DNA from: Takakia lepidozioides
Taxonomy: Eukaryota; Plantae; Bryophyta
NCBI GenBank assembly: GCA_030704615.1
Contig: CM060734.1
Span: 20,336,001 to 20,400,000, forward strand
DNA: 64,000 bases
Direction of reading: 5' to 3'
Under the pieces are notes generated by a model that worked only from the letters and a program-made list of their open reading frames with translations, ran no database searches and had not been told where the DNA came from. This document shows, one piece after another, positions 29,414 through 60,277 of the stretch (the stretch's first letter is position 1; every line of letters starts with the position of its first letter). A program made the translations under genes and the position numbers.

Positions 29414-29444
<31 letters not shown>

Positions 29445-30880: not shown

Positions 30881-31425
30881 TTCAATAAAAATGAATGCAC
30901 AGTTGGAAGCATGGCACAATTGTTCTCTATTCCACAAACAAATCACCGAACACAAACATGAGCAAATGACGGTGCCTTTGGCCGACATTTTGGCTGGTAT
31001 ACACATGGGCAACATCTTTTATTTCACAACACATACACAACAGCAATACAAATGACAATGATCACATTGGTATTACTTCAGTACAGAAATATAAACATGT
31101 CCACTAAAAAGTGCGGATGCATGCCTACAGTTGTTTTGCTTCAATTTCTTCTACTGCTTCGACGGCGGGATGAAGAAGATCTTAATCCTAATGCTCCGAT
31201 GGGTTGAAAATCCGGGTCACCCTCGACTTCACCACCGTTGCCATGATCAGTGCTAGAATCGTCCTCCCTATCCGACCTCATATGTCCAGGCCTTTGAATC
31301 TGCAAGCGACATCGAACCACATTTAGTTCTCTCTGAGGTCGACTCCCGTTCCGGTCTTGAATACCATCCACGATATCTGGCCTGTTTGTGGGCCGATTGC
31401 CTACAAAAGGTTGGACTGTTCTCTG

Positions 31426-34148: not shown

Positions 34149-34574
34149 CCAATATCCACTCCCCTAGAACCTAACGATGCAAGCAACAAAAAACAGTCAC
34201 CTATAAATGAACGTGTTGTGAATGTAGAGTGCAATGCGATAGCCCAACACTTTTACACCTGTCAGCAACCCAAGTGAGTCGATGTGGGTTGTAGTGTTGA
34301 GCTTATACACAATTTGTTGAAGTGGCTTTGGTGGAAGCCACAACGGCAAAAGGTGGGCACCCTCCTCTTTGGCTACACTCTCGATCAATAGAAGAGAACA
34401 TTCAAAGCAACCTCAAGTGTTTGCTCCAAAAGAAGTGAGGAGCTTGGTGACCCTCCTCCCTTATATATGATCCAAGAGGGATGAAAGTGAAATGAAAGTG
34501 AAATGAATAAATGACGAACCAATAGCGCCCACCCAAAAAAGGCTGTACAACCATATTTGTTAATTTTCAAATTA

Positions 34575-36180
34575 AGCGACCGCTAATACTACGGTCCGTA
34601 TTTTTATTTTTTATAAAAAACAAGCAACCGCCACTACTGCGGTCGCTTTTATTTCTTTTCATTTTGTGCAATATTGCGGTCACTTCTATTTTGTATATTT
34701 TTAAATTTAAGCGACCGCCAAGATAGCGGTCGCTATTTCTTTTTTTAATTCGAAAAATAAAGCGACCGCCAGTGCGACCGCCAATCTTGCTTTTATTAAA
34801 AACAAATTTGAAGCGACCGCCAATATGGCGGTCGTTATTTCTTTTTCTATTTCGAAAAATAAAGTGACCGCCAGTGCGATCGCCAATCTTCCTTTAAAAA
34901 AAAAACAATTGAAGCGACCGCCAATACGGCGGTCGCTATTTCTTTTTTAATTTCGAAAAGCAAAGCGACCGCCATAATTGGCGGTTGCGTTCATTTTGTT
35001 AATTTTCAAAAATATCTTTGCCACCGTGCGACCGCCAATACAACAGTCGCTTGCTTTTTTTTAAAAATTAGGCGACCGCCAATACGACCGCCAATCTTGT
35101 TATTTTAAAACAATAAATTGAAGCGACCGCCAGCATAGCGGTCACTATTTATTTTTTAAATTCAAAAAATAAGGCGACCGCCAATCTTGCTTTAAAAAAA
35201 AAAACATTTGAAGCGACCGCCATATTTCTTTTTCTATTTCGAAAAATAAGGCGACCGCCAGTGCGACCGCCAATCTTGCTTTAAAAAAAATAAAAATTAA
35301 AGCGACCGTCAATACGGCGGATGCTATTTATTTTTTAGTTTTGAAAAACAAAGCGACCGCCATAATTGGCGGTCGCGTTCATTTTGTTAATTTTCAAAAA
35401 TATATTTGCCACCGTGCGACCGCCAATATGGCAGTCGCTTGTTTTTAAAAAAAAATTAGGCGACCGCCAATACGACCGCAATCTTGTTTTTTTAAAACAA
35501 TAAATTGAAGCGACCGCCAGCATAGCGGTCGCTATTTATTTTTTAAATTGGAAAAATAAGGCGACCGCCAGTGCGACCGCCAATCTTGTTTTAAAAAAAA
35601 AAACATTTGAAGCGACTGCCAGTGCGACCGCCAATCTTTCTTTTAAAATTTTTTTTTTGAAGCGACCGCCAATATGGCGGTCGCTATTTATTTTTTAATT
35701 TTGAAAAACAAAGCGAACGCCATAATTGGTGGTCGCGTTCATTTTGTTAATTTTCAAAAATGTATTTGTCACCGTGCGACCGTCAATACGGCAGTCGCTT
35801 GTTTTCTTTTTTAAATTAGGCGACCGCCAATACGACCGCCAATCTTGTTTTTTTAAAACAATAAATTGAAGCGACCGCCAGCATAGCGGTCGCTATTTGT
35901 TTTTTTAATTCGAAAAATAAGGCGACCACTAGTGCGACCGCCAATCTTGCTTTTAAAAAAAATAAATTTTGAAGCAACCGCCAATATGACAGTCGCTATT
36001 TCTTTTTCTATTTCGAAAAATAAGGCGACCGCCAGTGCGACCGCCAATCTTGCTTTTAAAATAAAAAAAATTGAAGCAACCGCCAATACTGCGATCGCTA
36101 TTTCTTTTTTAATTTTGAAAAACAAAGCGGATTGGCGGTCGTGTTCATTTTGTTAATTTTCAAAATGTATTTGCCACCGC
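34575..36180. repeat. Subterminal array of GCGACCGCC motifs in direct and inverted pairs
   Basis: Repeated AAGCGACCGCCA...GCGGTCGC and GCGACCGCCAGTGCGACCGCCAATCTT units with higher-order periodicity. Confidence 0.95.
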
Positions 36181-38006: not shown

Positions 38007-40861
38007 ATGTCGAATTCTGCTTCTAGCTTCCATCACAGTCCTAGTACAGATTCCGGAGGGACAGATCATAGACTTAGACGTAGAATATTTCGCGCAGCAA
38101 TTAGAGAAAGATTTTTTCAATTACCCAGAAGTACAGTTCAAGTAACAACATCTGAAGAAGAAACAGAGGAGACTTCGGTTAATCAACCCGTAGATCACCT
38201 GAATATAGATCTGAACGAATAAGACTCTGAAGGTTCTGAATCCTCAGTATCCTCTCTACCTTTAAGCCCAGCTAGACCCAGTAATCCAGCATCTAACCCA
38301 CCGCTAAGCCCAGGAGGTTCAATGGCGCAGCCACCGGCTTCAATGGCACAACCAATGGCGCAGCCACAACCACCACAGGCACCGGCACCTCCACCAGCAC
38401 CGCTTGCTCCAGATATCCCAATTGTGGTGCCGGCAGGTTTGGCTCCATTGCCACTACCGGGTCACTTGCCTTGGTTTTCTAGTGAACCACATGAAAACCC
38501 TGAATATTATGTCAAAAAAATTGTCCAAAGTTGTTACTCCAATCAGGATTTGGATAATGCTTATTGGTTGATCTGGTTCCCTGCAATTTTAAGGGGTAGG
38601 GCGTTGACTTGGTATTGGCAGCAAAACGGGGGTTCATTTCAACAATGGGCTCAATTTCGGGATACCTTTCTAAATCATTTCAGAGCAGCACATCAGTTTA
38701 CGAGTGTTCTTATGGCCCTTGCCAGATCAGACAGGGACCAAATGAGGAAGTTGCTGATTTTGAGACGCGTTTCAAAGAGCTAATGCGATCAGAATCCTCT
38801 AACACCCTTGGATGATGGGGTTATGAAAGATTGCTTTCTGAGTGGGTTACGAGAGGATATTCACTTGTTTGTGTTGCAACAGAGACCTGTTACATTAGCA
38901 GATGTGATCCACTCAGGGAAAGAACATGACAACATGCATCGTCAGGTACAACGTGCGAAGATGCCAGAGATGGCGTTTCCGATTAACCCTACGCTTGCAG
39001 TTTCGGAGGCACCTCCCCCGCCCTATTACAGGCCGACAATGACTGGAGGGATGGTTCCTGCTGCCACGATGACATCTGCAATGCCTTTGGTGGCTACCAC
39101 CACCCCCTCAAACCCAACAAGGCACTTTCAGTCAGTTCCTGCTGAATCATATACGGGATCCACTAGCAATGATCGGATGGGACATTTTGAGGAACAACTA
39201 ACATCTGTGTTGAGAGCTGTTGAGTCCATGGGGGATAGAGTTAGTGCCATTGGCCAGCAGGTTTCCAGTTATGTCCATCACAGGGATACTCAGGTTCCAT
39301 TAGCTGAGACGGGTCCTAATGCGTCCAAGTTATGGTGTTATAATTGTCGAGGGTCAGGTCATGATCCCCAACATTGTCCCAACCCGATCCAGGAAAGGGG
39401 ACCTCCTCCATCCCAGAATCCTCCACCAGGACAGGGATATAGGCCACGAAACCGTTATCCGCCATGTGGAAAGTGTGGTCGGTCCAGTCATAGAACAGAA
39501 GATTGTTGGAACAACGTCACATGTCTTCATTGTGGTTTAATAGGTCATCCTTTGGAGCGCTGTCGAACGAGAAATATTGAGAGGCCAAAACCTACAACCC
39601 AATGGCAAGTTGATCAGAATCTACGAGGTCAAAGAGCGCCATTTCTTGATTAATATAATCAGGTGCCTCCGGCAAATTTACCACCCCAACACGGGATGTA
39701 CTTTGCTCCGCAAATATTACAAAGAGATCCAAATTCCAATCCCCCAAAGCAATCTCAATTCAGTCATCAGCCTAGGGTGTCATTTACAAATCCTGTGATG
39801 CAGGAAACGCAAAGTCAACTTCCATGGCGACGATCTCAGGATGAGGGAAATCAAGGGTCCAATCAAGCATCGACATCCACACAACCTCTTCCACAAGCCG
39901 GGACTTCCTCTGGTCCAATCACGCAGAAGTTACCATCGCAACCTAATGTGTATTGGATACATGCCGAACTGTCAAGCATGCCAAAAGAGGAGGAACACGA
40001 GGAGAACACATGTGTGGTGATGACTCGCCAACAACGAGAGATGCTAGTACGAGCGCCGGAAGAGGTAATTCCAGAGGTTACACCTACTTCATCTTCGGAC
40101 AAAGAACCAATGGATTTTCAAGTTGTGAAGGATGATGTGACAAAAATTGCTACTACTCTTCACAATGAAAATGAAGCCAGTATCAGGAAGGGAAAGTTTG
40201 TGGTATTTGAAGGGAGTGACTCTCCGGGTAAGGTGTCCACTCCGTTGCCGTCACTAGTGATGCGACTGAAAATGTCAGCAGTCAAAATAGCTAACACTAC
40301 AGCGAAACGTCCTCAAACTCTGAAAATGAAGTCTACCACCATGAGATTTACCTATAAGCTTGAGCCCTATAACTTGATGCATGACCTGCGCCAAGTGCAG
40401 GCCAACATTTCAGTAGCTCAGCTTGTTGCTCTTGCCCCTACAGTCAGACAAGCCCTGAAGGCTTCATTGGTCAGGAAAAGACGAGAGAAATTTCCCAGTA
40501 TTGCATAATGTCAATGCAAGAATAGACCCTGGACCAATAGAGATTGAAGTGGAGATTGTAGACTGTTTTATTTAACATTGCTTGGTAAATGGTGGAAGCT
40601 CGGTGAACATCATGCCACTCTCCACAATGGAGAAACTAGGCTTACACATGACTGGTAAATCCCCATTGATTATCCGATTGGCAGATCAGCGAAGAATCAG
40701 GCCAGTGGGTCAAATTTCCAATCTTCAGATGCAATCCGGAGGTTCTGCATATACAATGGATTTCCAAGTCATTGAAATTCCGTCAGATGGATACTCGTAT
40801 GCATTACTGTTGGGCAGTCCATGGTTGGTTTAGGCTCAAGCATGTACAGACTGGGCTAAGG
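38007..40861 (+). pseudogene. gag and aspartic protease of element B
   Basis: FPAILRGRALTWY gag domain. Knuckles CYNCRGSGHDPQHC, CGKCGRSSHRTEDC and CLHCGLIGHPLERC. Protease VNGGSSVNIM...LADQR...LLGSPWL. Confidence 0.9.
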
Positions 40862-43444
40862 TGTCAAGTTATTTTACCACGAGTGTGAAGTTAGCTAGAA
40901 AATAGCTAGCTTTTATATATTGACATTTGGGATTGATCCAAGTGTCAATCCAGGGGCCAACACATGTTTGGGCACCTGACGTTGTTATCTTCACGGCAGA
41001 TCGCGGTGGGCTCATCTTTCTCGAGTTGAGCCTCACCGCGTCTAGCTATGGCGCCGTAGTGTGGATTCCCCATGGCGTGGGGTGCACTTGGCTCGACTTA
41101 ATATATGAGTGATGTTTTCATGTGCAAGCATGTGAGTTTGAGAGAGCTTGTGTGCTTGTATCATTCCTTTCCTTATCACTCAAGAAAGATCAGCTCGAGT
41201 CTATGAGTGCCAGGTTCGAGTTAGTTGTAGCACTTGTGTTTTCAGATCATGAGAAGCGGTTCAGCCTAGAATGCAGGGATCCGTGCATGAGCCTATCCTA
41301 AGTGGATAGAGTGCAAAGGCGAACAGGTTGCAGGTTTGCCATGGATAGAGAGGCGGGCAACCTATGTTGAAGAGCAGCGTTGCATAGCTCAACGCTATGG
41401 CAACCAAGTTTGGGCTTCTAGTGTGAAGTGGAGGAGATGCTGGCCACGAGTGGGCGAACTGGTGGTCATCTTCTTCAGCTGCAGGCCGAGTTAAAGAGCT
41501 GTAGAAATGTGGGCTGCGCATGGGAAACTAGCATATTGCAGGTTGGAGATGATATGATCAGCTCTAGGTATTTCTGCCCGAAACTAGTTGTTGCGGGTAG
41601 ATGAGGAGCAGCCGAATGGTGGAGCTGCGAGGGGATGCATCGCAACCCATTGGGAGCTTCAGCTCCAAGCTCATGAAGAGGTATGAGTGAAGAGAGGGGG
41701 CTGGTCCCTCTTGTGTGCAAATCAGTGCACTTGTGAAACATGTGCCGAGTTGGAGTTTCAATCTGAAACTCAGCAGTGTAAGGGCTCTTGGAGTGGCAAG
41801 AGCGGGGCTGGAAGAGCAGCAATGAGGCGCCCTAGAGCTAGGGGATATGCATGAGAAGTGCAGGTGCACCAAGTTTGTAAATGTGTGTATTTTCAGATTC
41901 GTTTTTGTGAGTTTCATGAAGAAAATGGAGCTTGTTGGGCAGCATATTGCTTGCTTGTTGAGTTTAGGGTGCCTCTGGTGGGTCGTGAGAGACCAAGAGA
42001 GTATGGCAGCAGGTCTGGTGGCTTCGCAGAAGCCATAGCTCGGCGACAGCAGGTGCAGGAGCAAACCCCAACTCGGAAAGAGCTCGGGAACGCGTGGGAA
42101 CGCGTGGGAACGCATGAGAACTCATTGGGAGTTCTAGGGAACGCAGGGAATAGTGGTCGTGATGGGCCGTTGGGGCGGTATCACGAGATACCACGAGCCC
42201 AGGTCGTGACTGTTGACCATGACCATTGACCGTGACCGTTGGAAGTCATGGTGCGGACACAACGGGTGGGCACGGTGACCAGATCGTGGGGATGGCGGGC
42301 CGTTAAGGCTCGTGGGAGTGGTACCACGGTGTATCACGGGGCAGCTCGTGGCCAACGAGCGCCTAGGGCGGGCCGTGAGGAGTCGTGGCGGTTGGAGCCA
42401 CGGAAGGCTGCGAACAGGCAGAATGAAAATAAAAAATAAAAAATAAAAAAATAAAAATCTTTTTTCACTCGTTTCGTGGGACCTTGATGGGGAGGCTGGG
42501 CTCTATAGAACAACGGTTTTGAGCTAGTTGATCCGGCAGAAAAGTCGGAATTGCCTCCTTGTTGCGTTTTAACAAAGGGGATTACTTCCCTGCAGGTAAT
42601 CTTTTCGGGTTTTCAGCCCAATTCTGAACTATGGGGGAGACCAGCCTGCAGGTAATTCCTTTGGACAGAATGTTGTTGGGGCCGATATGTACCTCTATTT
42701 GCTCCATTTTTGAACTTTCAACGAATGGCGTGGTTTCCTGAGGTGGTCCATTCTGAGGAATGGCTGGTGGACATAAGGAGGCACTGACAGACCCTGTGGA
42801 GGCTTGCATGGGGCCTTGGAGGCCAAGTTTCATGAGCTCGTGGAGGGTGGTTTGAGGAGTGTCTACAGGATGCTCTCATGGTCATGCAAGTGAGAGAAGA
42901 GAGGAAAAAAAGAGGGTGTTGGGATGAGAACGTGCTGGGGTTAGGCATTGCTTTAGCTTCTCTTCCTCGTAGTTTTCCACCTTCTCTGTAGGCCGAGACC
43001 TTTCCGTAGGTGGAGGCAATAGTCAGTCCGGGTTTGGGCTGGGGTGTCCTTGCAGGAGCGACACTTTGGAGAGATTTTTGGTGTGGGGGAGTTGTTGTTT
43101 TCATTCTTGCGTTTGGATCCCCTCCACACCTGCATTCTTGATTGTGCGCCATGCTAGTTTTGTGTGGGCGCTTGATTTTATAGGTGGTTGACTCGGGCTT
43201 GATCGCCGATCCAACCCTAGAGCATGTTGTCGATGGTGAGGTTGGGTTGATGACCAGTCAGACCATCTTTGTTTCTCTTGTGGTGAGGTTGGAGGTGATG
43301 ACCAGCCAACCATAGGAGTGCCTGTGGTGGATGCAGGTGCAGGTGCAGGTGCATGTGCAGGCTATGTTAGGAACCTAGTATTCCAAACCATAAGCCGCAT
43401 CAGGTTCTCTACCCGGATACCTTGTGGAGAGGGGGTTAGAGACA
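40862..43444 (+). repeat. Probable 5' LTR of element C
   Basis: TGTC...GACA ends and no credible ORF. It lies directly before gag. There is no second copy in the window to confirm it. Confidence 0.55.
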
Positions 43445-43483
43445 GGTTCATGACCGGTTGAGTGTCAGTTTGTCAACACGGAG

Positions 43484-45980
43484 GTGCCACTAGTTGTTGG
43501 GGAAAGTGCCGGTACAAGCACTAGCGATACTAGCGGGTATACGAGACGAGGTGTGCGGTTTAGGCCACCTTCACCTCCTGTGTCTTCTACGGAAGGTTCT
43601 GATTCGGATTGTGAATCAGGAGGACTCACACCGGCGGTGCAAGTTGTTTCCTTGCCATTGTTGTGGGACACAATGGAAGAGATGTATGGAGCCACCAAGG
43701 GGCCACGTAGGTACTCTGGGGCGGTGGGCACCATTGAGTTGGATGATTTTATCCAAGAGTTTGATAGTTGGTGTAACTTGCAGCAAATGCGCAATCCACA
43801 ATTGTTTACGCCTTTCATGGCATGGAAGAGGCTGTTTCAGCACCTTGAGGGGCCGCCCATGGATGATTACCATGAGTTTAGGCGGGGGCACGATGATGAG
43901 ATCGAGGAGTGGAGGATGTACTAGTCACCCGACTATGTCTCCATCACTAGATACTCTGGGGCCTCTTACATGGCACATTGAACATAGTGGCCAAGTCTCA
44001 AAGCGAACCAAAATCAATCGAAATTCGTTCAATGGGCCAACGGATGGTTGCCCATCCAAATGATTTTCGTTCGCTTTCACACCGGCAGCAGCCACACTGA
44101 CAGCTGCACCAGCAGCAGCAGCTACAACAGCAACTTCCACGAGCAGTAATGGGACTAGTGGTACAGCAACTACGACGTCCACCCAAGCTACTGCTGCACC
44201 AGCACCAGTGGCGGTGCCTGCCTTCAACCCTGTTGTGGAGTTCTTCAAAGAATTGAGAAGGAACTACCAAGGGCTGAGGACAGAGAAGTTGAGGAGCTTG
44301 CAAGAGTTCCAACGGAAGCCTACTGAGAGCTTGAGGGAGGCTTTCACTCGCATGAGGCGCTTGATTAATGTAACCCAAGGGGTTACGGAGGCTTAGGCAG
44401 TCCAGTTTTGGTATGGGATATTGGACAAGGAGCTGAGGAGAAGGGTGCGAAATGCAACTCTCCTACAAGTGGCCCAACCTATCTTAGCATATGTGTTTTT
44501 ACTGGCAGAGCGGATAGAGCTCAACATGGTAGAGGAACAAGTGGTCATGGTGGGATTTGCTAAGGAGGCACCACGGGGTAGTGGTGCTCCTAGCCAGCCA
44601 CTACCTCAACGTGCTCAAGACAACAAGGGGGCTCAGGCGAAGCCCAGGGAAGGACAGAGAGGACCTCAGATGCAGGGGTCTCTCCCTTCATTTGCTAGCC
44701 AACAACGGGCGGATGTGGTGTGCTGGATATGTAGAGGACCCCATGTCAAGAAGGATTGCCCAAAGGGAGACAATGGTTTGGCACCGGCACAGCCTGCACA
44801 GTTGCAGTGTGGGCATTGTGGCAAGTACGGGCATGGAGAGGCCCAGTGCTATGGTTTGCATCCTGAGTTGCGCCCAGCCCAGTTCCAAGGGAACAATGGT
44901 GGCCGGGGGCAAGGTGGAGCAGCCCAAAGAGGACAAGGTGGCTAGGCACGAGGTGCAGGCCAAGGGCAAGCTCAACATGGCCAAGGACGCGGAGGTCAGG
45001 GTGGTGACCAAGGCATGGCCGACCGGCTTCAACAGCTAGAGCATAAGCTCGCTGCCATGGCCACAGCTCAGGTGATACCAGCTCCAAGGCCGGATGGTCC
45101 ACCTCCTGCTCCTGAGGGAGGAGACTTGGGAGGCATGGGATTCATGTGCGGGGCAGCACTACCACTAGTGAGGGGTGCCACTACCACTACCACTATGGGT
45201 GGGGCACCACTACCACTAGTGTCGGGCAGCACTACCACTACCACTATATGCGGGGCAGGACTACCACTGGTGCAAGTGGAGTCAGCTGCGGCAGTGACTC
45301 AAGGAGCGGCACAAGTTTCTGAGCCACGGGGTGCGGAGGTGGAGTTGGATCCACAGCATGGGGAGGCAAGCCGTCAGGCCAGGCTTCCTCAGTCATTCAC
45401 ATTGGCGGAGACAGTGTCGACGCCGTCCATGGCACCTAGTTCTCGCCCGACTATTACCGAGGCGGAGGTTACTATGCCATTGGGGAGAGCTACACGGGCA
45501 GCACCACTACCTAGTGTTGCTAAGGCTACGGCAGCTAGTGTGCTGCTGGGGGCGGCCACATCTGTGTGCCAGGCTCCATTGTTCTCGGCTACCATGATTG
45601 CGACGCCGAGGGTAAGACCAGCTGAGGTGTTCAGGCTAGCAGCTACACTCTGTGAGAGTGGGGAGGTTACTTCATCTTTTGCGGAGATAGTGGGAGGTGT
45701 AGTGCCGGAGGGATCCTCGGATGTGAGGGTCAAGACTGCCACGGCAAGCTGCAGCTGCCAGGTTGATGGAGCTGCCAGCTAGGCCAGCCATTGAGCGCGC
45801 CATGGTGACACCTGGAGTTGTCATGTTAGACAACCAGAATGACATTTTCTGTTTGAGTGGACCGGCAACCAAGAGGTACCGGCCACTGCGAGTCTTGTTG
45901 GACTCGGGAGCTCAACCATTGATGCTGGGCAGAGCTGCTATTACAGGCTTGGGCCTCACGGAGGCGGATATGGAGCCGTG
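43484..45980 (+). pseudogene. gag and aspartic protease of element C
   Basis: RRYSG....ELDDFIQEFDSWC and FQRKPTESLREAFTRM gag motifs. Knuckles CWICRGPHVKKDC and CGHCGKYGHGEAQC. Protease VLLDSGAQPLM near 45895, truncated by a deletion near 45980. Confidence 0.85.
43950..44078. repeat. ~125-bp filler derived from the 120-bp repeat of 19.6-21.0 kb, inserted in gag of C
   Basis: GGGGCCTCTTACATGGCACATTGAACATAGTGG... is the reverse complement of the repeat. It is followed by forward TCAATCGAAATTCGTTCAATGGGCCAACGGATGG.... Confidence 0.9.
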
Positions 45981-46785
45981 CAGCAGTACCCTGAGTTGTT
46001 GCCGGTGTCTGTGGTTTGTGGATATCAGCAGGCCTTGCCAACAGACATCTCGTTGCTGGGGGCGCAAGATTTGGAACGGGTTGGCCCTGCCAAGGGCATT
46101 CATCAGCCGGGCATGGCAATGGATTGCGAGACTCGAGATCGGGTTTGTTTTGGGAGATGGTGCGGGTTTTGCGCCACTTTCAGCTTCATCAAGCTGTATC
46201 TCCAGCATACATCTTGGAGAATGTGCCACTGATGGGCGATTCTTGGGCCAGGGTGATGGCCAGTGTGCATCAAGTCCGGTCGTGGCTTGGGTCAACAGTG
46301 TTGCTGGATGCAGCTGCAGTAGGGTTGCAGGCTCATCGTCCACGGTTATGGTGGACTAACTTGATGCCACACGCACTACTCAAGCGTGCATTTGATGGGG
46401 TGCAGCGGCCAGCACACCTCACAATGGATAGCATTTTGGACACAGGGAGGCAGTCTCAGCGTGTGAGACACGATGACCATTCGCCTTTGGCAGTGGTCAA
46501 CAAGGTGGGTCAAGCACGAGCAGCACTACCTACACTGCTCAGCTTCCCAGGATCGCATGCTTTCCGGGATAGTGGACCTGGCCTCCTGTGGGATGCTCAG
46601 CTGCAGCAGTTAGTGGAGCCTAATGCCGACGAGCGAGAGCGGGCTATGGGTTTTTCCACTGGGACCACGGCGGTGCCTTCTCTTTCTGTGGCATCACGTC
46701 ATCAGGTGTTGGGGCAAGCGATGGATCTCAATTGCTTGACCTGGATTATCAGTTTGGCTATGGCTGAGCAACGTAGAGTGCAGAT
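45978..46785 (+). pseudogene. C5 cytosine DNA methyltransferase domain (DNMT3/DRM-like), N-terminally deleted
   Basis: Motif III-like ALPTDISLL. Motif IV GWPCQGHSSAG..GLRDSRSGLFWE. Motif VI YILENV. Motif VIII DAA....AHRPRLWWTN. Motif IX ERERAMGF..GTT. Motif X R..VLGQAMD. Motif I (FxGxG) is not present. Confidence 0.9.
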
Positions 46786-47810
46786 TGGGCATGCCAAGGT
46801 CTTTAGCACTCTGGACTTGCGGTCCGGATATCACCAGTTGCCAATCAAGGAGGCAGACAAGCAGAAGACGGCATTCTGGGGGATTAATGAGCAGGGGAAA
46901 GATTGCCTATATCAGTGGCGGTTCTTACCATTTGGGCTTAAGAACGCTCCTACAGAGTTCCAGAGAGTCATGGACAGGATTCTAGCAGGGGTAGACTTTG
47001 CTCGGTGCTACATAGATGACATCATCATCTTTAGTGCTACGGTGGAGGAGCACGAGAGACACCTTCAGGTGGTGTTTGAGCGCTTGAGAGCGCACGGATT
47101 GAAATTACATCTGGGGAAGTGCAAGTTCTTCCACAACCAGATTGAGGCCACATGATATATCATGGAGGATTGGGGGTGCAGCAGACTAAGGTAGAGGCCA
47201 TCGCACAGATTCCACGCCCCACGGATGTGAGTCGAGTTCGAGCTTTCATGGGGTTGGCAAACTACTATAGACGGTTTGTCAAGGGATTTAGTGCTATTGC
47301 AAAGGCTCTAACCAAGCTGACCAAGGTAGACCAGGAGTGACAATGGGAAGATGAGCAAGAGCGCGCCTTTCAGGAGCTCAAGGCGAGGTTGACCTCGGCG
47401 CCCATCTTGAGACGACCTATCAGGGGGGGTCCCTTTCAGTTGCATACAGATTGGAGCATGCTGGGCCTTGGAGCGGTGCTCATACAGGTGGATGATGAGG
47501 GAAGAGAGTTCGTAGTGGCTTATGCTAGCCGCTCGAACAACGCTGTAGAGTCTAAGTATAGCTCATATGAGGGGGAGTGCTTAGCTGCAGTGTGAGCCGT
47601 GGCATACTTCAGGTGCTATCTATACGGCAATCTCTTCACCCTTGTCTCGGATCACCAGCCACTCAATTGGTTGATGGAGTCAGACAAGCTTACAGGGAAG
47701 CTTGCACGGTGGGCACTTATACTTCTAGAGTATGACTTTCAGGTTGTGCATCGACCGGGTTTGGTCAATAGGGATGCGGATGGATTGAGTCGCAATCCAT
47801 GCATGAGCCA
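46786..47810 (+). pseudogene. Reverse transcriptase (N-terminus missing) and RNase H of element C
   Basis: RT motifs FSTLDLRSGYHQ, LPFGLKNAP, CYIDDII, FMGLANYYRRFV. RNase H motifs LHTDWS..GLGAVL, VAYASRS, YEGECLA, DHQPL, ADGLSR. Confidence 0.95.
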
Positions 47811-48144
47811 GCAGGATGACACTGGAGCTCAGTGGCATGGTGAGACGAATGAGGAGATGGTGTCAGGATCAACGACGCTACCGCGTGAGCGTATGAGCAT
47901 ACGCTCACACAACGATGACGTGGCGTGAGCCTACGCTCACGCAGCTGACGTGGCGCTGATGCTGACGTGGCGTGAGCCTGGTCCAGGTCATGCCACGTCA
48001 CCACAAAGAAGGTGGGCCTATAACCGTGGGGCCCCCAACTGCTGATATCACCACATGAAGGTGAAACGGATGAAGGGTTTCGGGCTTTCCTGGAGTTCAA
48101 CCTTCTGTTAACAGGAGCTTCATTTCCTAGAATTGAAATGAACT

Positions 48145-48303
48145 TTGTGTTAACACGAGGTTGTTTTCCTGGAACTAAAATCAACATCGTGTCAACACGA
48201 GGTATATTCGGAGAACTTCATATGAACGTCGTGTCAACACGAGGTTGATTCGGAGAACTTCATGTCAACCTCGTATTAACACGAGGTTGACATGAAGTTC
48301 TCC
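48145..48303. repeat. ~40-bp tandem units ending in a perfect 23-bp-arm hairpin
   Basis: GGAGAACTTCATGTCAACCTCGT-ATTAAC-ACGAGGTTGACATGAAGTTCTCC at 48252-48303. AACACGAGGT occurs 4 times. Confidence 0.9.
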
Positions 48304-48486
48304 AAATCCATACAACAAAGGACACGTCCCAGCATACTGGCAGTGAATTGCAAAAAACCTTAACAGAAGATTATCCAAGCATGTATATTCCCCATATGGC
48401 ACAAGGAAGCTACTTGATTTCTGAATCAAAATGTATGTGCCATGAGTGTCGGCGAGTCAAAACATGTCTATTCTAGCATGCATGAC

Positions 48487-49086
48487 CTATGGTCCCCTTG
48501 CCCAAGAAGAAGGAACTCGAACTGGCCTCTCAAGGACCTCCTGAGTGACCGGATGCCGATATTTGAACAAAATGTCAGCGGTTTCTGTCGCCCGGTTGAA
48601 ACTAACGAGGATGTCATGTTTATCGATAGCGCCCCCTTTGTAGAAGGACATTTTCACAGTGGGCCCTGTGTTCCCCTCCTCCTCATCCTCATAACTGAAG
48701 AGAATGTCCCCACTTTCCGAGCCAGTCCGTCCACGCGTGAAGTTTTCACCTATGCACTCATCATACGTCCACTCGCAATAATTCCAGCGATACAACAACG
48801 TTGTGTGTGATCTGTTCGGCTCCCACTCAAGCGGAAAGTCCAGGTCCATGATGCGTAGGAACCACCTGCTCCCCAGCCGGGGTCCAGGAGAATCGTGCAA
48901 TCCTGGAAGAAACTCCATTGCTCTCAGCTGGACAAGTCGAGGATCGTCCCTGTAAACATCTAGGAAGACAATGATGTCGTCTGCTTTCGGGACAATGACT
49001 CCCGTCTGGCGTCGATAGATGTGATTCGGGCACGACATGGCCTCACAACACAGCAAGAACACAGAGCAGGGAGGAGATGGGCACAA
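48487..49086 (-). CDS. Hypothetical protein (up to 199 aa; likely start near MSCPNHIY), unknown function
   Basis: Uninterrupted ORF with globular, non-repetitive composition. TATATCCC on the minus strand at about 49135 upstream. No family recognised. Confidence 0.45.
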   Translation of the reverse strand: MCPSPPCSVFLLCCEAMSCPNHIYRRQTGVIVPKADDIIVFLDVYRDDPRLVQLRAMEFLPGLHDSPGPRLGSRWFLRIMDLDFPLEWEPNRSHTTLLYRWNYCEWTYDECIGENFTRGRTGSESGDILFSYEDEEEGNTGPTVKMSFYKGGAIDKHDILVSFNRATETADILFKYRHPVTQEVLERPVRVPSSWARGP

Positions 49087-49278
49087 CAGAGAAGAGTGAA
49101 GAGCAAAATGAGAGCGAGGCCGGCGGAAGAGGGATATATCATTGCTGCACTGCCAATGTCGTATGCGGCAGAACTTCTATTTCCTCCGACATGTGTGCTT
49201 TTATTAGACAAATCCGCACCAGTTTCAGGAGAGTTTGCAAAACTCCCTCACCGTAAGGCGGGTATTTGCTCTCCGGAG

Positions 49279-49560
49279 CCCAATTTCGGCGCCGTTATTG
49301 GTTGCACTCCCCGGCCTTCAGCCGGGTATTTGGTTTCCGGACCCCAATTTTGGCGCCGTTATCGGCTGCACTCCGGTGGCTTCAGCCAAGTATTTGGTTT
49401 CCGGGGCCCAATTTCGGCGCCGTTATTGGCTGCACTCCGGAGGCTTCAACTGGTTATTTGGTTGGCGGAGCCCAATTTCGGCACCGTTATTGGCTTCACT
49501 CCCGAGCCTTCAGCCGGCTATTTCTTTTCCTGTGCCCAATTACGGCGCCGTTATACCCAA
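49279..49560. repeat. 64-bp tandem repeat, about 5 units
   Basis: CCCAATT..GGC.CCGTTAT at 49279, 49343, 49407, 49471 and 49535, with a remnant near 49668. Confidence 0.93.
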
Positions 49561-49952
49561 CCATCCTGCACTTCTGCAACAGTACTATCCACGGTTATAG
49601 GTCACCATTGCATTTTCGGAGTCTGCAAACCCGGATCCTAATTCCGCTTGCGTCCCTTCCTCTGGGGTAATTTCGGTGCCGTTATTGCCCAAAATTCAGT
49701 TTTTCTATGACCTGGCCTGGCGGTCCATGAGCTTGGGCTCCAAGTCATGAGCGGACACTGGTACTTATGAGCGGAGTGCTTCCAGCATAAGCGCGGAAAT
49801 CTTCGAAAACCTTCTCTTCTTATACTACTTTCGATTATTTTATAGTTTTGGGCCCGAAAAAAATCTGCCGAAATTCGAAGTGTGTTACTTTGCGGCTCAT
49901 GGGTGAGCCATGCCCACTCATGAGCTCATGAGCTCATGGAATAGCAACCCCC

Positions 49953-52900
49953 AGTACGACACCCATACCGGAAGAACTAGAGTTAGATGCTACTCCTTCT
50001 TATTCTTTGCAAGAAAGATTAAGGGAATTGGTATAGGAAGAAGATCAACCACAAGGTGAAAGATCTGAGGTACATCCCTGGATAAAAGATTTGACAGAAA
50101 TCTTTGATAAGAGTTGGCATGGAACACCAAAAGCAGGAACTCCAGTTTCTGAAACGGAAGATGAAGAAGGAGGAGAGGATGTGGCAGAGCCAACGGAGAG
50201 TTCAGACTCTCCAACACCATTGCAATTGAGTTACATGAGTGAAGAAGAAGAAACCCAAGGGCAGAACTTGGAAGATGAAAACAGAGAGAAGAAATTGGAA
50301 GATGAAGAGTATGAAGAAGTAGACCCAACAGCTGAGGTTGAGACTACAACCAGGACATCCCAACCCGTTGGACCTGGATCAAGTGGAGCACTTGGATCAC
50401 ATGCCAACGAAGGTGTCGGCTCAGGGGGGACAGGGAGTGTGGGAAGTAGTGCAACTGGAGCTGGGAATACTGTGAATATAGTGGGGCTAGTAGCAGGGAG
50501 TGCTTAGGGGCCAGCACTTGGTGGAAGTTCCACCACAACTACAACAGGTCCTCAAGGACCAGCACCAGCAAGGGGGCCAGCACCTGTCAGTGGGCAGGGG
50601 GTAGGGCCACAGATGGCGTTACAACCAACACAGGCAAAACCACCTTTTCCAATATATTCAGGAAAAGGGGATCCTGATGTACACATTAGCCAATTTGAGC
50701 ACATGTGTATTGTGAACAATGAGAATGACGATGATGCCAAAATGAGACTGTTTCCTTGTTCACTAATAAAGAAAGCAAATGAATGGTATGCAAGATTCCT
50801 TGATAATCATTTCCTAACCTGGAATGGCTTAAATACAACATTCCAAAATAGGTTCAGGACAAGTAAAACTGAGGATGAAGTGTATGGAAGTTTACAACAG
50901 TTAAAGCAAAAGAAGCATGAAACTGTTGAGGAGTATATGGAAAAGATGGAATTGATGATGAAAAAGTTGGCTGTTGTACCAGCGCCAGGATTACAGAAGA
51001 CTTGATTTGTGAGTGGGCTAAGACCAGAAAAGAAAGTGGATATGCTACCCCATAATACGGTGGAGGAGGCATTTGAAACAGCTAACAAAATTGAGCAATT
51101 GGGAATGCTCAGGAGAGAGAAAAGGGATGATGAGGACTCTGAGGATGAGTCAGATGAGGAAGAAGAGCAAGAGCTCAAGAGGAAGAGTAAGAGGAAGGAA
51201 AAGTTGAAGAGGGATAACTATGCAAAAAGATTGGAAGAAATTTTAAAGAAGTATGCCACAGAGGCTGCAACACGTTGGAGGAAGGGTGTTTGGTGTGCAA
51301 AATGCCAGAATGTAGGCCATACCACAGCTGAATGCCACATGAAGGAGAAACACTGTACTATCTGTAAAATGGATAACCATTCTACTGAGAATTGTTACTA
51401 CAACAGAAGAACAGCTGCAAGAGAACCTAGGCAAGTAAGGGTGCATCAAGTGCAGCCCCAGCCAAGAAGAAATAATGAACATGACCACTATGGAAGGCTT
51501 GGTGGTTATAACAATGGTATGGAAAGGAGAGGTAATCCAAAAGAGAATTACCAAGGCAATCCTAGAGGCAACTATCAGGGTAATCCAAGGGGGAATTACC
51601 AGCCAGGGAATTAGGATTATAGAAACAATCCCAGAACAGACCAAGGGCGAGGACCTAATGGGGAAGAACTGTGTTACTATTGTAATTAGGCAGGACATCG
51701 TAAGGCAGCCTGCCCATTCTAGATCAGACACCAGAATGAGATGAGAGCTCCTGTGAATGAGGGCCCAGTGGTGGCAGCTCACATGGTTAGGCCATGTGTT
51801 GTACCAGAAGTAAGTACAATGACAGTAACCAGAAGCAAAACTAAATTAATACCTCCAGTAGATGAGGAAGGTGATGATAAGGAAGATGGCAGTGATGTGC
51901 CTGAAGATGATGAGGCTTGGAGAGATGAGAGGGAACTGCACAAGGAAGTGGCAGATACTGTAAGGGAAATGCAGAAGAGTACTGATATCCCTATGGCAGA
52001 TTCCTCTGATTCTGGAAGAGAAGATGAAGAGAGTGAGGATGAAGGAAAGAAAGAAGCTGCAGAAGTGCAGAGTAATGAAGGGACTTTGGCTGAAGTAATA
52101 TGCCAGTCCAAAGCGGAGATTACCATTGGACAGCTATTGGCTGTGGCACCTCATTGTAGGCACAGGTTATATCAAGCAATTAATCAGATTGCTCATGTGA
52201 CAGGGAACACAGACCTGAATAGCAAGGTGAGAAGCTATATTGTGAAGCCGGAAGGGCAAGAAACAATCATGGACTTTGATGATTCTATGCCAGTAATCCA
52301 ATTGAGAATTGGAAGCACAGACTTGACTGATGTACTGATAGATGGAGGCTTTGGAGTGAATATCATAACAGACCAATTAAGGCAGAGGCTTGGTTTAAGT
52401 AACATGAAACCAGCCCCATTCACAGTAACAATGGCAGATCAAAGAAGTGTTCAGCCATTGGGTTTGATAAGAGGAGTTAAGATACAGATTCAAAAGATGA
52501 TCTTTAAGATCACAGTGATTGTGTTGAAAATGGATGATGTCATGGAAGCTTACTCCTTATTGCTGGGTCGACCATGGCTGAAAACATGCCAGGGTATTCC
52601 ATGACTAGAATTCCCAGTTACTAACTGTGCATGATGTGAAGCACAAGATAAAAATCACCACAAAGAAATCTAGTAGACTACCTGCTACGAGAAGACCTTG
52701 GGGAGTCAGAGAGTATGACTGGAGGAGAGGACTTGATGAGGAGCAAGAAGCTACCCTAATCGCTGCACACCACACCCGGAGTGGGAGCAGGTTGCAGAAA
52801 TGCAACTGGAGGGCCTAAGTTGTTTAAAAGGTATCTGATGTGGTGTAGTGACAGCAACATCAATTGAGGGTGAAACAAGCAGTTACCCACCACATTTCTA

Positions 52901-54425
52901 TGAAGAAAGAGAGGGAGAAATGGAAATCCTAGGAGAACCAACTACTGTGAGTTTACAGGATGAAGTAGTGACTGGTTGGACAATCACAGCTGATGAGCAG
53001 GTGAGAGAAGTGAATGTGGGAACTGAGGAGGAATCGAGAATGGTGAAAGTAGGGGCTGACTTGGAGCCAAAATTCTTTGAGGAAGCTAAGAGTCTGTTCA
53101 TCAAATACAGAGATGTATTTGCTTGGAGCTACAAGGATCTGAAAGGGATACCCCCTGAGATCTGTCAGCATAAGATTGAACTGGAACCAGGGTCAGTACC
53201 AATCAAACAGGCAAGGTACAGAATGAATCCCAACTATGCACAAAAGGTTGGGGAAGAGATCAAGAAGTTGGCTGAGGCTAAGTTTATATACCCGATAGAG
53301 TATACAACTTGGTTGTCACCCATTGTGATAGTTCCCAAGAAGAATGGCAAACTGAGAGTTTGTGTGAACTATAAGAAGTTGAATGCTTGTACGAAGAAAG
53401 ATCCTTTCTCTTTGCCATTTACAGCAGCGGTATTGGACACTGTGGCAGGCCATGAGATGTACTCATTCATGGATGGCTTCAATGGTTATAATCAAGTGCA
53501 AGTGGCAGAAGAAGACTAGGGAAAGATAGCTTTCATCACAGACTGGGGTGCTTATGCATACAAAGTCATGCCTTTTGGACTTTGTAATGCACTAGCAACC
53601 TTTCAGAGAGTGATAAGTGAATCTTTCCATGAGTATCTGGATGATTTCATGCAGGCGTTCTTAGATGATTTCAGTGTGTACAGCTCTAAGAGTGAGCACT
53701 TGCATAAATTGGAGTTACGTTTGGCCAGATGCAGGATGAGAGGTTTGGGCCTGAATCCAGAGAAGTGTACTTTCTGTGTGAACTCAGGGGTACTTTTGGG
53801 ACACAGTGTGTGTAAGAGGGGACTTCTTGTGGATCCCAGAAAGACAGAGGCCATTAAAGCCTCTCCACCACCAGTAAATGTTAAGAGTCTAAGGAGATTT
53901 CTTGGACAAACCAGTTATTACAGAAGATACAACTACACCTGTGCTGATTAACCCCCACTGGCATGTAGTGTTTCATGTTCACTGTGATGCCTCAGGAGAA
54001 GCATTGGGAGCAATATTAGCCCAAAATGTTACAGGAAACATAAATTCACCTGTGTATTATGCTAGCAAATGATGAACAATGCTGAAAGGAACTATAGCAC
54101 AACTGAAAGAGAAGGACTGACAATGATTTATGCAGTCAAGAAATTCAGGCATTACCTATTGGGAAGGAAGTTTATGTTTTATGTGGATCATCAGGCTCTG
54201 ATATATCTGGTGAACAAACCTTTGATAAGTGGAAGGATAGCAAGGTGGTTAATAATCTTGCACGAGTCTGAGTTCGAGGTTGTTTACAAGCCTGGTCGTT
54301 TGCATCTTGTGGCAGATCACTTGTCACGCCTATCAATAGGAGAGCCAGCCACAGGAGTAGACGACCAACTACCTGATGCGAGTTCATTTGCAGTGGAGAT
54401 ACAGGGAAGTGCAGATGACTAGTTA
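49953..54425 (+). pseudogene. gag-PR-RT-RNase H of A2
   Basis: Same motifs as A1, with many stops and a small deletion near 53927. Confidence 0.93.
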
Positions 54426-55992
54426 GTTCTGACGTTAACCCGCGTCCACCTGTCACTGACCCTATGGACTGTGTAACCCGCATGGACTGTGTTGGGCTGT
54501 GATAAGCTATGTCGGACTGTGGTGAACTGTGATAGGCTGAGTGACACTGCGATGGGCTGTGATAGGCTGTGTCACACTGTGATGGGCTGTGATAGGCTGT
54601 GTGGCACTGTGATGAACTGTGATAAGCTGTGTGACACTGTGATGGGTTGTGATAGCTATGCAAACACCTGTACTTCCCCCCTCGGTCATACACACTCGGC
54701 TTAGCGACAAGTGCTCCATACTCCATTGGTAGCACCAGCGCAACCCGTGACTGTTTTTGTGTTTTAACATGCAAATCGTGCTGCAATGGTTTGTCATGGA
54801 TACCACTGTATCCCTTCAACTTATTGGCATTGACTCTTCCCAACATTTCTTTGTTAATGGTTTGTAACATGGCGGTGTTATTATCATACATCTTCTGTAT
54901 GACATAAGGTCCTTTCCATGGTGATTTAAGCTTAGAAGCTTTAATCTTCCTCTTCTTCTGCAACCACAGTACCAAATCTCCCGTCTTAAAAGTCTTTAAT
55001 TCTGGTCATGTTATCTGCTGCATCAGCACGTACTTCCTCCACATGGTATAATTCATGTGTCCTGACTTTAATTGAATCTTCCAATTCCATTCTCCTTCCC
55101 CATTCAGTTCTCATAGTAGGTAACAAGAATTCCACTGGAAGTAAAGCTTACATACCATAAACTAACTGGAATGGTGTATACTTAGTGGTGACTTTATATG
55201 AAGTCCTGTATGACCACAAAGCTGTCAGCAGCTTTATATCCCAATCTGTTCTGTTCGCATTGACTATCTTAGCCAAGATAGTACATAGTATTTTGTTGAT
55301 GGCTTCTGCCTGCCCATTACCCTGTGGGTAATAAGTTGTACTTTTTATATGCACAATCATAAACTCTTTAGTCAATAATTCTATGGTCTCATTAATGAAG
55401 TGACTTCCCTGGTTACTGATAAATCGAAGGGGGCAGCCAAATCTTGTAAGTATGTTCTCATACAGGAACCTTGCTGTGGACTTAGCTGTGTTGTCCCTCA
55501 GAGCTTTAGCTTCCACCCACTTTGTAGTATAATCAGTGGCTGTGATTATGTACTTGTTATGTGCATTTCTGGCTGGTGGGTTAGTTGGTCCAACAAAGTT
55601 TAGTCCCCATTTCTGAAATGGTTCAGTAGGCATCGTAGGATGCAAAGCCATCTTTCCAGATCTCTGCAATGGTCCTAGCCTCTGACACTCATCACAACTC
55701 TTACAATACTTGTGTACATCCTTGAACAAAGTAGGCCACCAGTACCCTGCAAGTAGGATATTTCTACTGGTAGTCTCTTCTCCAAAATGACCTCCAGCCA
55801 CTCCTTTATGAACTTCCTCCAAAACTTTATTTACTTCATGGTGGTATAAGCATCGTTTAAGTAATCCATCAGGTCCTAGCTTATACATTCTGTCCCCTAC
55901 CATAGTGTAAGGTAAAGCCTTGATAGCAATTCTCTTCCTCTGCTCCTTCCCATAACTAGGTGGGCACTGTCCATGAGTAAGGTAGTATCTGA
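54426..55992 (-). pseudogene. Integrase and downstream minisatellite of A2, inverted
   Basis: ORF 55148..55903 (integrase HHCC and core) and ORF 54172..54975 (GPY tail) are on minus, inside a plus-strand element. Confidence 0.93.
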
Positions 55993-58900
55993 AAGAGAAG
56001 TTTGGAAGTCAAACTCGGAGAATGTGCCACGCGGACAGGGGAAGTCGGAGGCATGTCTAAAAACGAACACGTGGCCACTAGGGCGAAACACACCGCTGTG
56101 CATATATTGCAAAAGTGGGTATCATCATGCAAGAGGACAAATCGGGCCGTCAAAGTACCTACCCGGTACATCAGCCAAAACTATTTGTGGGCCCATTAAT
56201 GCATTCAGGGCAGGGGTAACGGAACCCTTTCCGAGTACAGAAAAGAGGGACTTTTGCCACATGTGCTGTCTTACTGGACATTCCAGGTGGGAATGTCCAC
56301 GGAGGGGGGTAGAATTAAAAAGTTACCTAAGCAAGCAACAGCCAATCAAGAGCGAGAATTTCATGCAGGTGGTTCCCTCCAAGAACAAGAACAAAAAATT
56401 GGAAGAGTTATGAGCGGAAGAGTCGGGATGGCTCCGAATAGCCCGTGTCTCGACGGGAGGGGCAATCAAAGCTATAGCTTTATAGCTATGGCAGATATAA
56501 CGGATTACACGCTCGCTTTACTTCTTATGCAGTGGCGCAAGGACGGACGAATTGAGAGTACATTCTCTCTCACTCGATACTTGCAAGCCCCACAGGCTTA
56601 CACGCACTTACCTGTTCCATTCTGTGCCAACCATACCTTTATGCTCTGTGCCCTGCAAGCTTTCCTTCAGCTGTTTCAAACAAGGCCTTTTTGTTTGTCT
56701 AGAATGAAGAGAGTGAGGGGAATGGAGGATATCAGGGTGAAGAGCACCACGATTCTGCAGAAGCAAACAATTGCTACACCGCAGGCAGTGCAGCTGCTGA
56801 GGGAGTTGCGATTGGAGGGGCTGCTACGCAAGGACTGGTCCTTGCATCATTGGCAGTATATGATTCAATTTCTTTAGAACTTTGAGCCTCGGACGGGAGT
56901 TACCCAGGTGAGGGGAGTAGATATAGCAATTACTCCCCAGTACTTGCAGCAATTGTTTGATTTGCCATCGGGTCATGTGGATGTGGATGAGCACAGGGCA
57001 AGATTGCAGATAGGGAATTTGTTCCAAGAAGGGAGTTTCTTTAAGACTCAAGGTTACGCTTGTACCAAAGCCGAGTACCCAGGGCTCAGAGAGGTTGGCC
57101 AAATATTGAACGTTCTGTTTGCCATGAAACAGAACCAACAATATTTGAGCAGGTCATTCACAGAGGGGAGAGGATGTAGCTTGGGCAGAGTTAATGTACA
57201 ATGGTCTGGTGGAAGAGATGAAGAGGTTACAGGGCACTGCTGCTAAGTCTCCGATCATTGTGTCTGGTCCAGTCATTGCCCAAATCATTCTTGACTCTTG
57301 CATACTTGATACTCGGGAACGTAAGGAGATGGGAGTGTTTGAGGCAGTAACCACTGTAATTGAAGAGCAGGGCTCTTCACATAGTGAGGGTGGACTGGCA
57401 GGGCAACACCAGTCTAAGAGACAGAAGCAGGGTATGACTGTAGTGGCGGATCCACTGGCTTCACGGAAACCGCAAGATGATGTTTCCCAAGCTCTTGTGC
57501 AGGATGGGGCACAGCAGTACAGAGGGCTGTTATTATTGGAAGCACGGCCTTTGGAGAGGGAAGAAGAAGTCACTTCGGTACCATAGCCATCACAGCCAGT
57601 TGCCTCAGTTGTCTCAGAGGTTCCACAGTTAGAACATGTTGTGATACCAGAGCCTATTGCTCTGGACGGAGAAAGGTTGGACATTCCCACTACAGAGCAG
57701 GTCGTGGCAGAAATTGAGAAGGGTGACCTTCTCTATGAAAACTCTGGCTTGGTAAGGGAATCAGTGGTTCCAGAGGTGCAGAGTTTGTCCAGGGAAATCC
57801 CTGCTGTGCATGTAATACCCACACCTGTGGCGGAGGTACCAGGGGTAGAATATAAGGACATTGTAGCACCTGTGGAGGATGAGGGGGTTCAGGAAGAGGA
57901 CCTGGTGGGACAATGGCCTGAATGGTTGGTGAAACATCACACTGTGGAGGATCAGGGAGAACAGCAACAAGTTCACCATGAAGACCCACAGCAGGCATGC
58001 TTATGAGTTCCATAAGCATGACACTCAATTTGTTGGGCACTTATGTGAAATCCCATGTTCCATCTACACAATTGGCAACTTTGAGGGAAGAACTCAGGAA
58101 GGAGTTTGAGACTAGACTTGCCACCGAGTGTACAAACAAGGTGGATGTGGAGGCCAACCTCAAGTTGCAAAAAGAATTGGAGGACACAAAGGCTGCCTTG
58201 GACATGGCTGAGGGGAATTTGATTGAAGCAGGTCTCGAGGAGGAGAAGTTGCATGAAGCACATAAGCAACAGTTATACCAATTGCAGGTGAAGCATGAGG
58301 GCAAGTTGCAGGAAGTGAACGTGCTACATACAGAGTTGGAGGTAGTTCATCAAAGAATGACCATACAGTGTGCCACACTAACAACTGCTCTGGAGCAAAC
58401 TGCATTAGAAGTTAACAGACAAGGGGAGAGATGTATGATGACAAAAGCTGAGATAATAGAGCAAGGGAAACTCATTGTTGATTTAAAGGCTACAATCTGT
58501 CGCAATGAGAATACTTTCCAACAGTACAGTCAGGTTGAGGCTGACCAGGAGAGGTACATCCTAGAGTTGCAGCAAACAGTCATGGTCAATAGAAATGAAC
58601 TCTCTGTGGCTAACAAGGCTTGGAAGGAAGCCAATAATCTGGCTGCTGCCTATGCGGGGCTGGTTGAACCTCATGCGAAACGCATGGAGGCTTTACAGCA
58701 GCAGTTAGATGTATACAAACTCAACGAGGAGCAGACTCTCAGGGGTTCCACACAGGACTTGGTGGATAATCACCTTATGCAGGTATGGTTAGCACAAGGG
58801 CTGGTAGAAGGCAAAGCACCAAGGAAGCTCACCCAGGGCGAGATGAATGATCTCAGATTGTAGGTGCAGAACATTGCCACAACTACTATAGACAATGTCT

Positions 58901-60240: not shown

Positions 60241-60277
60241 CCGTGAGGACACGGCTTTTTGAGAGGGGGAGGGGTAA

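Follow-up and report, generated by a model that had tools for sequence, protein, structure and literature searches.

A DNMT3-type methyltransferase in a high-copy Ty3/Gypsy retrotransposon family of bryophytes, encoded ahead of a conserved and probably leaky stop codon

Why retrotransposons should keep a DNA methyltransferase (DNMT), a silencing enzyme of their hosts, has been an open question since 2018; the carriers known at that time were algae that lacked genetics. According to the accessible text of de Mendoza et al. 2018 (PMC5890265), the KnitGypsy-Dnmt3 elements of Klebsormidium nitens encode the enzyme in one open reading frame (ORF) with the reverse transcriptase (RT) and were called an acquisition in the K. 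nitens lineage, and the enzyme of the SymbioDIRS-Dnmt3 elements of Symbiodinium methylates CG de novo in yeast. The accessible part of a 2025 paper (PMC12344493) still cites only these 2018 streptophyte and dinoflagellate cases, and that of Neumann et al. 2019 (PMC6317226) holds no PHD-bearing or methylase-bearing lineage. Here we analyse a stretch of 64,000 nucleotides from the bryophyte Takakia lepidozioides (contig CM060734.1, positions 20,336,001 to 20,400,000; hereafter the window), in which a decayed Gypsy-type retrotransposon carries its own DNMT domain between protease and RT. This domain is integral to a high-copy Ty3/Gypsy family and no one-off capture, and the family reaches beyond the single-lineage capture in print. 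No land-plant description of it was found in the literature searched, with subscription papers, Repbase and the main supplement of PMC5890265 lying outside the coverage.

Judged from its sequence and from the predicted structure of a relative, the domain is a DNMT3-type C5 cytosine methyltransferase. A first-pass annotation of the window had noticed the motifs of such enzymes in canonical order between the LDSGA motif of a protease and the RT, and all of them are indeed present, within 45898-47020 (Table 1). The profile PF00145, proposed there as a check, matches 46022-46219 (E=4.1e-8; 33.5 bits, curated cut-off 22), and 46223-46792 searched alone gives no PF00145 match at E<=1. In Atlas the DNMT piece matches nothing more specific than generic methylase clusters. 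Motif I, which binds S-adenosylmethionine, is absent from the window copy, where it has been deleted; among relatives its strict pattern is matched by 113 of 171 domains, and it is present in the Calypogeia fissa protein P0001, the Marchantia protein P0007 and locus L017. The catalytic motifs G-[WPSF]-[PE]-C and E-[NH]-x are found in 150 and 167 of the 171 full domains, respectively. Only half of the suggested label 'DNMT3/DRM-type' survives: the motifs run I-IV-VI-VIII-IX-X, unpermuted, and a DRM identity is rejected, since the circularly permuted order is missing. Among PDB sequences the best matches of P0001 are DNMT3A/B (E 8e-11, vs 2e-4 for DRM2), and the model of the L017 domain (pLDDT 91.3) has DNMT3B/3A as its top Foldseek matches (E 8.7e-20, TM 0.69-0.71 by query). 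Pfam scans of 30 and 12 relatives revealed neither DUF3444 nor any other targeting domain. A host plant DNMT3 gene was considered and rejected, given the missing C-terminal DUF3444 and the neighbouring protease and RT.

The 46079-46783 part of the domain contains neither a stop codon nor an intron. Compared with eight loci it differs at a proportion of 0.19-0.36 of nonsynonymous (pN) and 0.73-0.80 of synonymous sites (pS), and it evolves like the RT and RNase H (RH), though somewhat faster; dN to relatives is 0.21-0.49, with dS saturated. By these comparisons, of a kind the first-pass annotation had recommended, the DNMT is under purifying selection. Near-identical copies within one family have dN/dS of 0.36-0.75, as expected when decay after insertion dominates.

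Sister copies in the same organism are known as short public contigs aligned to the window. In run X1, 50,256 contig pieces lie on 42500-48500, with summed depth high from about 42900 to 47870, and 10,488 pieces on 45900-46950 cover the DNMT in 30 of 30 bins. In two further runs, which are RNA by guess, a few contigs (80-90% alike) lie on Gag and RT-RH and next to none on the DNMT. The case that the first-pass annotation had named as its own refutation, namely that a fragment of a host DNMT gene was inserted once, into this copy, finds support in the broken junctions that flank the domain and in nothing else. Those junctions are deletions relative to sister copies, the same domain order recurs in 80 loci and in named bryophyte proteins, and the RT and DNMT trees are congruent; we regard this explanation as refuted, with practically no probability left to it.

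Protein searches for relatives returned 54, 90 and 154 matches, and 1268 proteins carry the domain at E<=0.001 in HMMER. Named relatives include P0001 (72.6% identity to the window DNMT over 234 residues) and many copies in Marchantia polymorpha (68-70%); other carriers are Sphagnum fallax, S. troendelagicum, Closterium, Haematococcus, Chlamydomonas eustigma and many metagenome contigs. The predicted extension of the system to land plants is thereby borne out for Marchantia, Calypogeia and Sphagnum. From a metagenome scan 80 of 166 loci were kept, and those long enough have the order Gag, zinc knuckle, protease (PR), DNMT, RT, RH, integrase (INT) and PHD finger. The window flanks share no DNA with these 80 loci. 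By its own domain order from Gag to RH the window element is a Ty3/Gypsy element, and the first-pass reading of it as a Gypsy element with an intronless DNMT agrees with domain order, profiles and relatives alike. The integrase of the relatives carries the D-D-E residues; the window copy has lost its integrase by truncation.

For the RT tree we chose 40 rows by hand and took two DNMT-less RTs of the window as its root; the DNMT tree has 38 rows and a midpoint root. Apart from these two roots, K. nitens elements, host DNMT3 and DNMT-less relatives lie outside both. The six rows of the stop-bearing group, with the window element counted among them, form one clade (100/99) in both trees. In other branches DNMT and RT are fused without a stop (P0101, P0127, P0129, P0134 and Closterium). 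A second architecture, RT-RH-DNMT-INT-PHD, is found in 58 of 198 proteins scanned, near-duplicates included (P0032-P0053, P0136-P0191); it has members in Haematococcus lacustris and C. eustigma and forms one clade in both trees. DNMT-bearing Gypsy elements of chlorophytes were likewise not found described in the literature searched. The congruence of the trees fits one old capture followed by relocation of the DNMT within the element. One family member, P0201, is labelled as a protein of a 'Candidatus Obscuribacterales bacterium' metagenome-assembled genome and is probably eukaryotic DNA in a bacterial bin.

What separates the DNMT from the replication enzymes? In the relatives of the window element a tail of about 75-115 codons comes after the DNMT and runs into an in-frame stop, behind which the same frame continues with RT, RNase H, integrase and PHD finger. 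The DNMT was first placed 'inside Pol'; in this branch it instead ends the Gag-protease ORF at the conserved stop, and the uninterrupted PR-DNMT-RT-RH-INT frame that the annotation proposed to look for in sister copies is, in the relatives, broken by this codon; the motif I sought with it is present in them. We aligned the junction to the L018 probe at 54 loci, which, as near-copies from a single family, amount to one lineage. A stop codon stands at one position in 52 of the 54 (38 TAG, 14 TAA; two have a sense codon), and CAACCC follows directly in 50. The diverged lineages have TAG CAA CCA (L017), TAA CAA TCA (L072, L074, L075) and TAG TAG CCA (L062). The distance from the stop to a tryptophan of the RT leader is 17 codons in the main family, 17 in L017, 28 in L072/L074/L075 and 21 in L062, always in frame, and L017 has only two stops in 2,163 codons, the conserved one included. 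ORF1 proteins of Marchantia, Calypogeia and many metagenome contigs terminate 94-149 residues past motif X. UAG-CAR-YYA is the type I readthrough motif of plant viruses such as tobamoviruses and benyviruses, as given in the accessible text of PMC3542737; the hexamer is matched in full by L017 and L072/L074/L075 and in five of six bases by the main family, and its first base is altered in L062. We consider it likely, from these sequence patterns, that ribosomes occasionally pass the stop and so make the replication enzymes. The stretch in question has been lost from the window copy; since both trees place that copy within the stop-bearing clade, its family presumably has the stop as well. No description of the stop was found in the literature searched.

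Several observations weigh against readthrough. CAACCC of the main family is one base off the CARYYA consensus, the 54 loci are not independent, the decayed lineages L066/L067 and L077/L078 have no clear stop-CAR-YY, and L079/L080 has another sequence at this place. The fusion of DNMT and RT without a stop in other branches implies that bulk expression of the DNMT is not needed family-wide. Hairpins of differing shape can be folded behind the stop in three lineages; they come without a shuffle control and were not used. Another possibility leaves the family and its DNMT as described but has the stop removed from the RNA by splicing so that Pol can be made, as happens in Ogre elements. A pyrimidine tract (13 and 11 of 14 bases) plus AG does lie about 30 nt past the stop in two lineages, and the public gene models P0004, P0010 and P0029 join DNMT to RT across it. 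The three models use different junctions, however, and may be pure predictions, and L062 and L072/L074/L075 have a weak tract (9 of 14). Moreover, the frame is kept across the stop despite the differing linker lengths of four lineages, and CAA-Y-Y is kept though synonymous sites are saturated, neither of which splicing needs. We therefore think splicing an unlikely route to Pol and retain readthrough as the favoured one.

The layout and decay of the window copy are given in Table 1. Three deletions private to this copy, their sizes judged from the relatives, are apparent where sister contigs of the same organism diverge from the window with loose ends. The first (45977-45981, about 0.79 kb) took the rest of the protease together with DNMT motif I, about 263 codons being missing relative to Marchantia P0007; the protease lies in a different frame from the DNMT. 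The second (46079-46085, <30 nt) shifts the frame and splits the DNMT. The third (46781-46787, about 0.68 kb) removed the DNMT tail and the RT N-terminus, a stretch in which the relatives have the conserved stop; here runs X1, X3 and X5 have loose ends behind 46781, and X5 and X13 before 46784-46787. The statement that the DNMT shares one ORF with the RT is correct for this copy, which is stop-free over 46079-47146, but only because the third deletion happens to be in frame. With five stop codons, frameshifts near 45690-45745, 46085 and 47146, and an abrupt end at 47869 beyond which integrase, PHD finger and 3' repeats are missing, it is a dead, truncated element, as was first concluded.

Table 1. 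Features of the DNMT-bearing element in the window (positions of the 64,000-nucleotide stretch)
Feature	Position	Strand	Basis and remarks
Probable 5' end and leader	40862..43672	+	Inferred; starts TGTC as in relatives
Gag, N-terminal part	43673..43951	+	74% identity to Marchantia P0007 residues 1-93; one stop, 43922
Inserted piece of unrelated high-copy repeat, splitting Gag	43952..44077	.	Depth spike, opposite-strand joints, loose ends
Gag core with two zinc knuckles (44721-44759, 44808-44849)	44223..44880	+	tblastn to P0007/P0004, translation; stop 44394
Gly/Gln-rich and spacer part of ORF1	44881..45744	+	Stop 44943; frame change before 45745
Aspartic protease, N-terminal half	45745..45981	+	LDSGA 45898-45912; 57% to P0007 586-664
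DNMT piece preceding the catalytic loop	45978..46085	+	69-73% to P0007/P0001; loose ends 46079/46085
DNMT3-type C5 cytosine methyltransferase, motifs IV (PC), VI (ENV), VIII (R-x-R), target-recognition region, IX, X	46079..46783	+	GWPCQ 46079-46093; ENV 46217-46225; AHRPRLWWTN 46331-46360; ERERAMGF 46631-46654; LGQAMD 46709-46726
RT, C-terminal part	46784..47146	+	LDLRSGYHQ 46811-46837; YIDD 47009-47020; PF00078 E=1.3e-28
RT end and RNase H past frameshift	47146..47869	+	PF17919 E=6.4e-26; stops 47338, 47593

The Gag and protease of the window copy match Pfam weakly (PF03732 E=0.0016, under the cut-off; PF13650 E=0.1 only) and align well with the relatives. The piece inserted into Gag resembles a repeat family, D20, also found at 19685-20995. 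In the window (43454-43672) and in L006, L017, L060, L061 and L074 the Gag frame is open for 70-100 codons 5' of the first ATG, and a motif G-x-T-R-x-G-x-R-[FY] upstream of this ATG is kept in the window and in diverged relatives; a non-AUG start or an unannotated N-terminus is possible. The 5' end of the element probably lies at 40862, which is the exact point at which an unrelated Gypsy element is cut off within its protease frame. Relatives begin with TGTC or TGTT and have leaders of 1.5-2.9 kb; the depth of sister contigs, whose copy number was tested from 42500 onward, rises strongly from about 42900.

The ends of the relatives depart from the usual long terminal repeat (LTR) arrangement. 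Instead of two identical LTRs they have the split repeats A-coding-B-A-B (L057/L061, L060, L071, L074/L076) or A-coding-B, with a purine tract before the first B (B1); the diverged L074/L076 family has the same layout as the main one. Elements of the relatives start with TGTC and end with CA, and a perfect 4-bp target duplication flanks five of the six insertions with both ends seen, the sixth matching in 3 of 4 bases. The window copy has no 3' end, which makes this check impossible there, and the A and B repeats find no match in the window. No TGG-type tRNA primer site was found after the first A of the relatives. At the loci examined (L057/L061, L060, L071, L074/L076, L019, L049, L039) the junction of B1 with the second A consists of CA, two variable bases and TG, resembling a circle junction, which suggests cutting inside circular or longer complementary DNA (cDNA). 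The main-family repeats are matched by 34 loci, of which 8 finish with B-A(-B) on the 3' side and 12 stop after the first B with the flank visible. A-coding-B as a second product of integration is weakened by L049 (B only) and L053 (B-A-B), whose right flanks are 95-98% alike over about 3 kb; the B-only form is thus probably a derived one, which can have arisen by recombination between B1 and B2 or by assembly collapse. Split repeats together with a DDE integrase imply a replication route unlike the standard LTR one.

What could the methyltransferase do for the element? From anatomy and selection, which are directly supported, we infer the following mechanism. The full-length RNA would yield mostly Gag-PR-DNMT and rarely a longer product, made by readthrough, that adds RT, RNase H, integrase and PHD finger; the protease would free the DNMT inside the particle, where, by general retroelement biology, new cDNA is the only DNA; and the DNMT would methylate this cDNA before integration. 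Arriving pre-methylated might, speculatively, help the insertion to pass as old, quiet heterochromatin. Taken whole, the reading we favour, with reasonable though far from full confidence, is a high-copy family whose DNMT ends the Gag-protease frame at a readthrough stop, is produced at roughly the rate of Gag and methylates the cDNA that the element newly makes. That the cDNA is methylated de novo, at CG and/or CHH as by moss DNMT3b, is by analogy somewhat the better guess. We would put forward only tentatively, as falling short of an even chance, the broader scenario of a single ancient DNMT3 capture by a green-lineage-wide clade of split-repeat, integrase-type elements, whose land-plant branch makes DNMT at Gag level via the leaky stop, with particles carrying many DNMTs and cDNA arriving pre-methylated.

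The composition of the element speaks against self-methylation: it bears no CpG trace of it, the observed/expected CpG ratio being 0.49 vs 0.16-0.17 in the neighbouring DNMT-less Gypsy copies, and the proportion of C before G at four-fold sites is 0.25 in the window element, 0.05 and 0.30 in neighbours and 0.09-0.77 in relatives. The moss enzyme PpDNMT3b methylates CG and CHH de novo (accessible text of PMC6453930), and the methylation context of the element therefore may not be CG. A further point against it is that KnitGypsy-Dnmt3 gave no methylation in yeast, a result that its authors call inconclusive in the accessible part of PMC5890265. This inactivity would also suit a fold kept for DNA binding or packaging, in which methyl transfer no longer matters; the retention of the catalytic motifs in most full domains (150 and 167 of 171) and the activity of the distantly related SymbioDIRS-Dnmt3 enzymes reported in the same source make such a role very improbable. 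Alternatively, the substrate of the DNMT may be host chromatin and not free cDNA: led by integrase and PHD finger, the enzyme would act during or after integration, on the target site, on the inserted copy or on rival elements. The missing CpG loss, which would mark methylation in every cycle, the chromatin-reading PHD finger carried by the family, and the amount of enzyme that bulk ORF1 expression would leave outside particles all agree with this. The domain, however, has no targeting domain in the Pfam scans, and the second branch, with the DNMT between RNase H and integrase, ties the enzyme to the cDNA complex; we give action on chromatin a minor share of the probability and keep methylation of the new cDNA as the preferred reading.

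The rest of the window is rich in other repeats. At least three copies of another, DNMT-less Gypsy family, 88-96% alike and partly inverted, lie at 12100-17700, 49950-56000 and 61000-64000, and a further Gypsy-like element contributes a Gag-protease part (38200-40861, +) that is interrupted where the DNMT element probably begins. A long-ORF repeat without Pfam or Atlas match is present in two copies, inverted and 83-87% alike, at 7500-11100 and 56400-60350. Arrays whose units of ~50 bp have a palindromic GCGACCGCC..GGCGGTCGC core flanked by A/T tracts occupy 2600-3200, 28100-30700 and 34550-36130. A hAT-type transposase remnant (DUF659, hAT dimerisation) lies at 31400-33550 (-) and a broken kinase-like frame with a weak Pkinase match (E=4e-5) at 3500-4770 (+). 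Directly past the truncation point there is a 229-codon open frame without a Pfam match (48490-49176, -), beside a 64-bp tandem array (49198-49581).

Elements of this kind abound in liverworts (Marchantia included) and in peat moss, which makes cDNA methylation testable in these plants; in M. polymorpha, where the annotated ORF1 genes include Mp_4g09160, Mp_Vg00370 and Mp_5g06330, some genes listed as hypothetical are full-length ORF1 copies, bringing the function of a transposon DNMT within reach of a genetic model plant. Some 'DNMT3' gene counts in bryophyte annotations may include element copies. The conserved stop, in turn, suggests how much of the enzyme is made.

Gammaretroviruses have a gag-stop-pol layout, and SIRE1 a readthrough between pol and env. 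Tca2, in its accessible description, is a gag-stop-pol element with an in-frame stop as well. With type I readthrough (PMC3542737, accessible text) the family shares an in-frame stop followed by CAA-Y-Y that parts an abundant product from a rare one; here, however, the stop lies behind protease and DNMT, the hexamer of the main family ends in C, and readthrough is predicted. The host enzymes PpDNMT3a/b, as described in the accessible part of Yaari et al. 2019 (PMC6453930), have a DNMT3-type catalytic domain in a non-flowering plant and are the best guide to specificity; they carry a C-terminal DUF3444, unlike the element domain, which lies within a retroelement polyprotein.

SymbioDIRS-Dnmt3 resembles the present family in having a Dnmt3 in a retrotransposon with split repeats, but, as far as the accessible text of PMC5890265 describes it, it is a dinoflagellate tyrosine-recombinase element, whereas in the present family the integrase is of the DDE type, the ends are TG..CA and the target duplications are 4 bp long. 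KnitGypsy-Dnmt3 was compared by its published description, no K. nitens sequence being among the protein matches or in the trees. By that description the two have in common the Gypsy domains, an intronless, unpermuted Dnmt3 under purifying selection, and DIRS-like A-coding-B-A-B repeats, which are common to the relatives of the truncated window copy. They differ in that a conserved in-frame stop parts the DNMT from RT and RNase H in the branch of the window, while other branches share one ORF, and in that the family described here is present in liverworts and peat moss and has chlorophyte members with the DNMT between RNase H and integrase.

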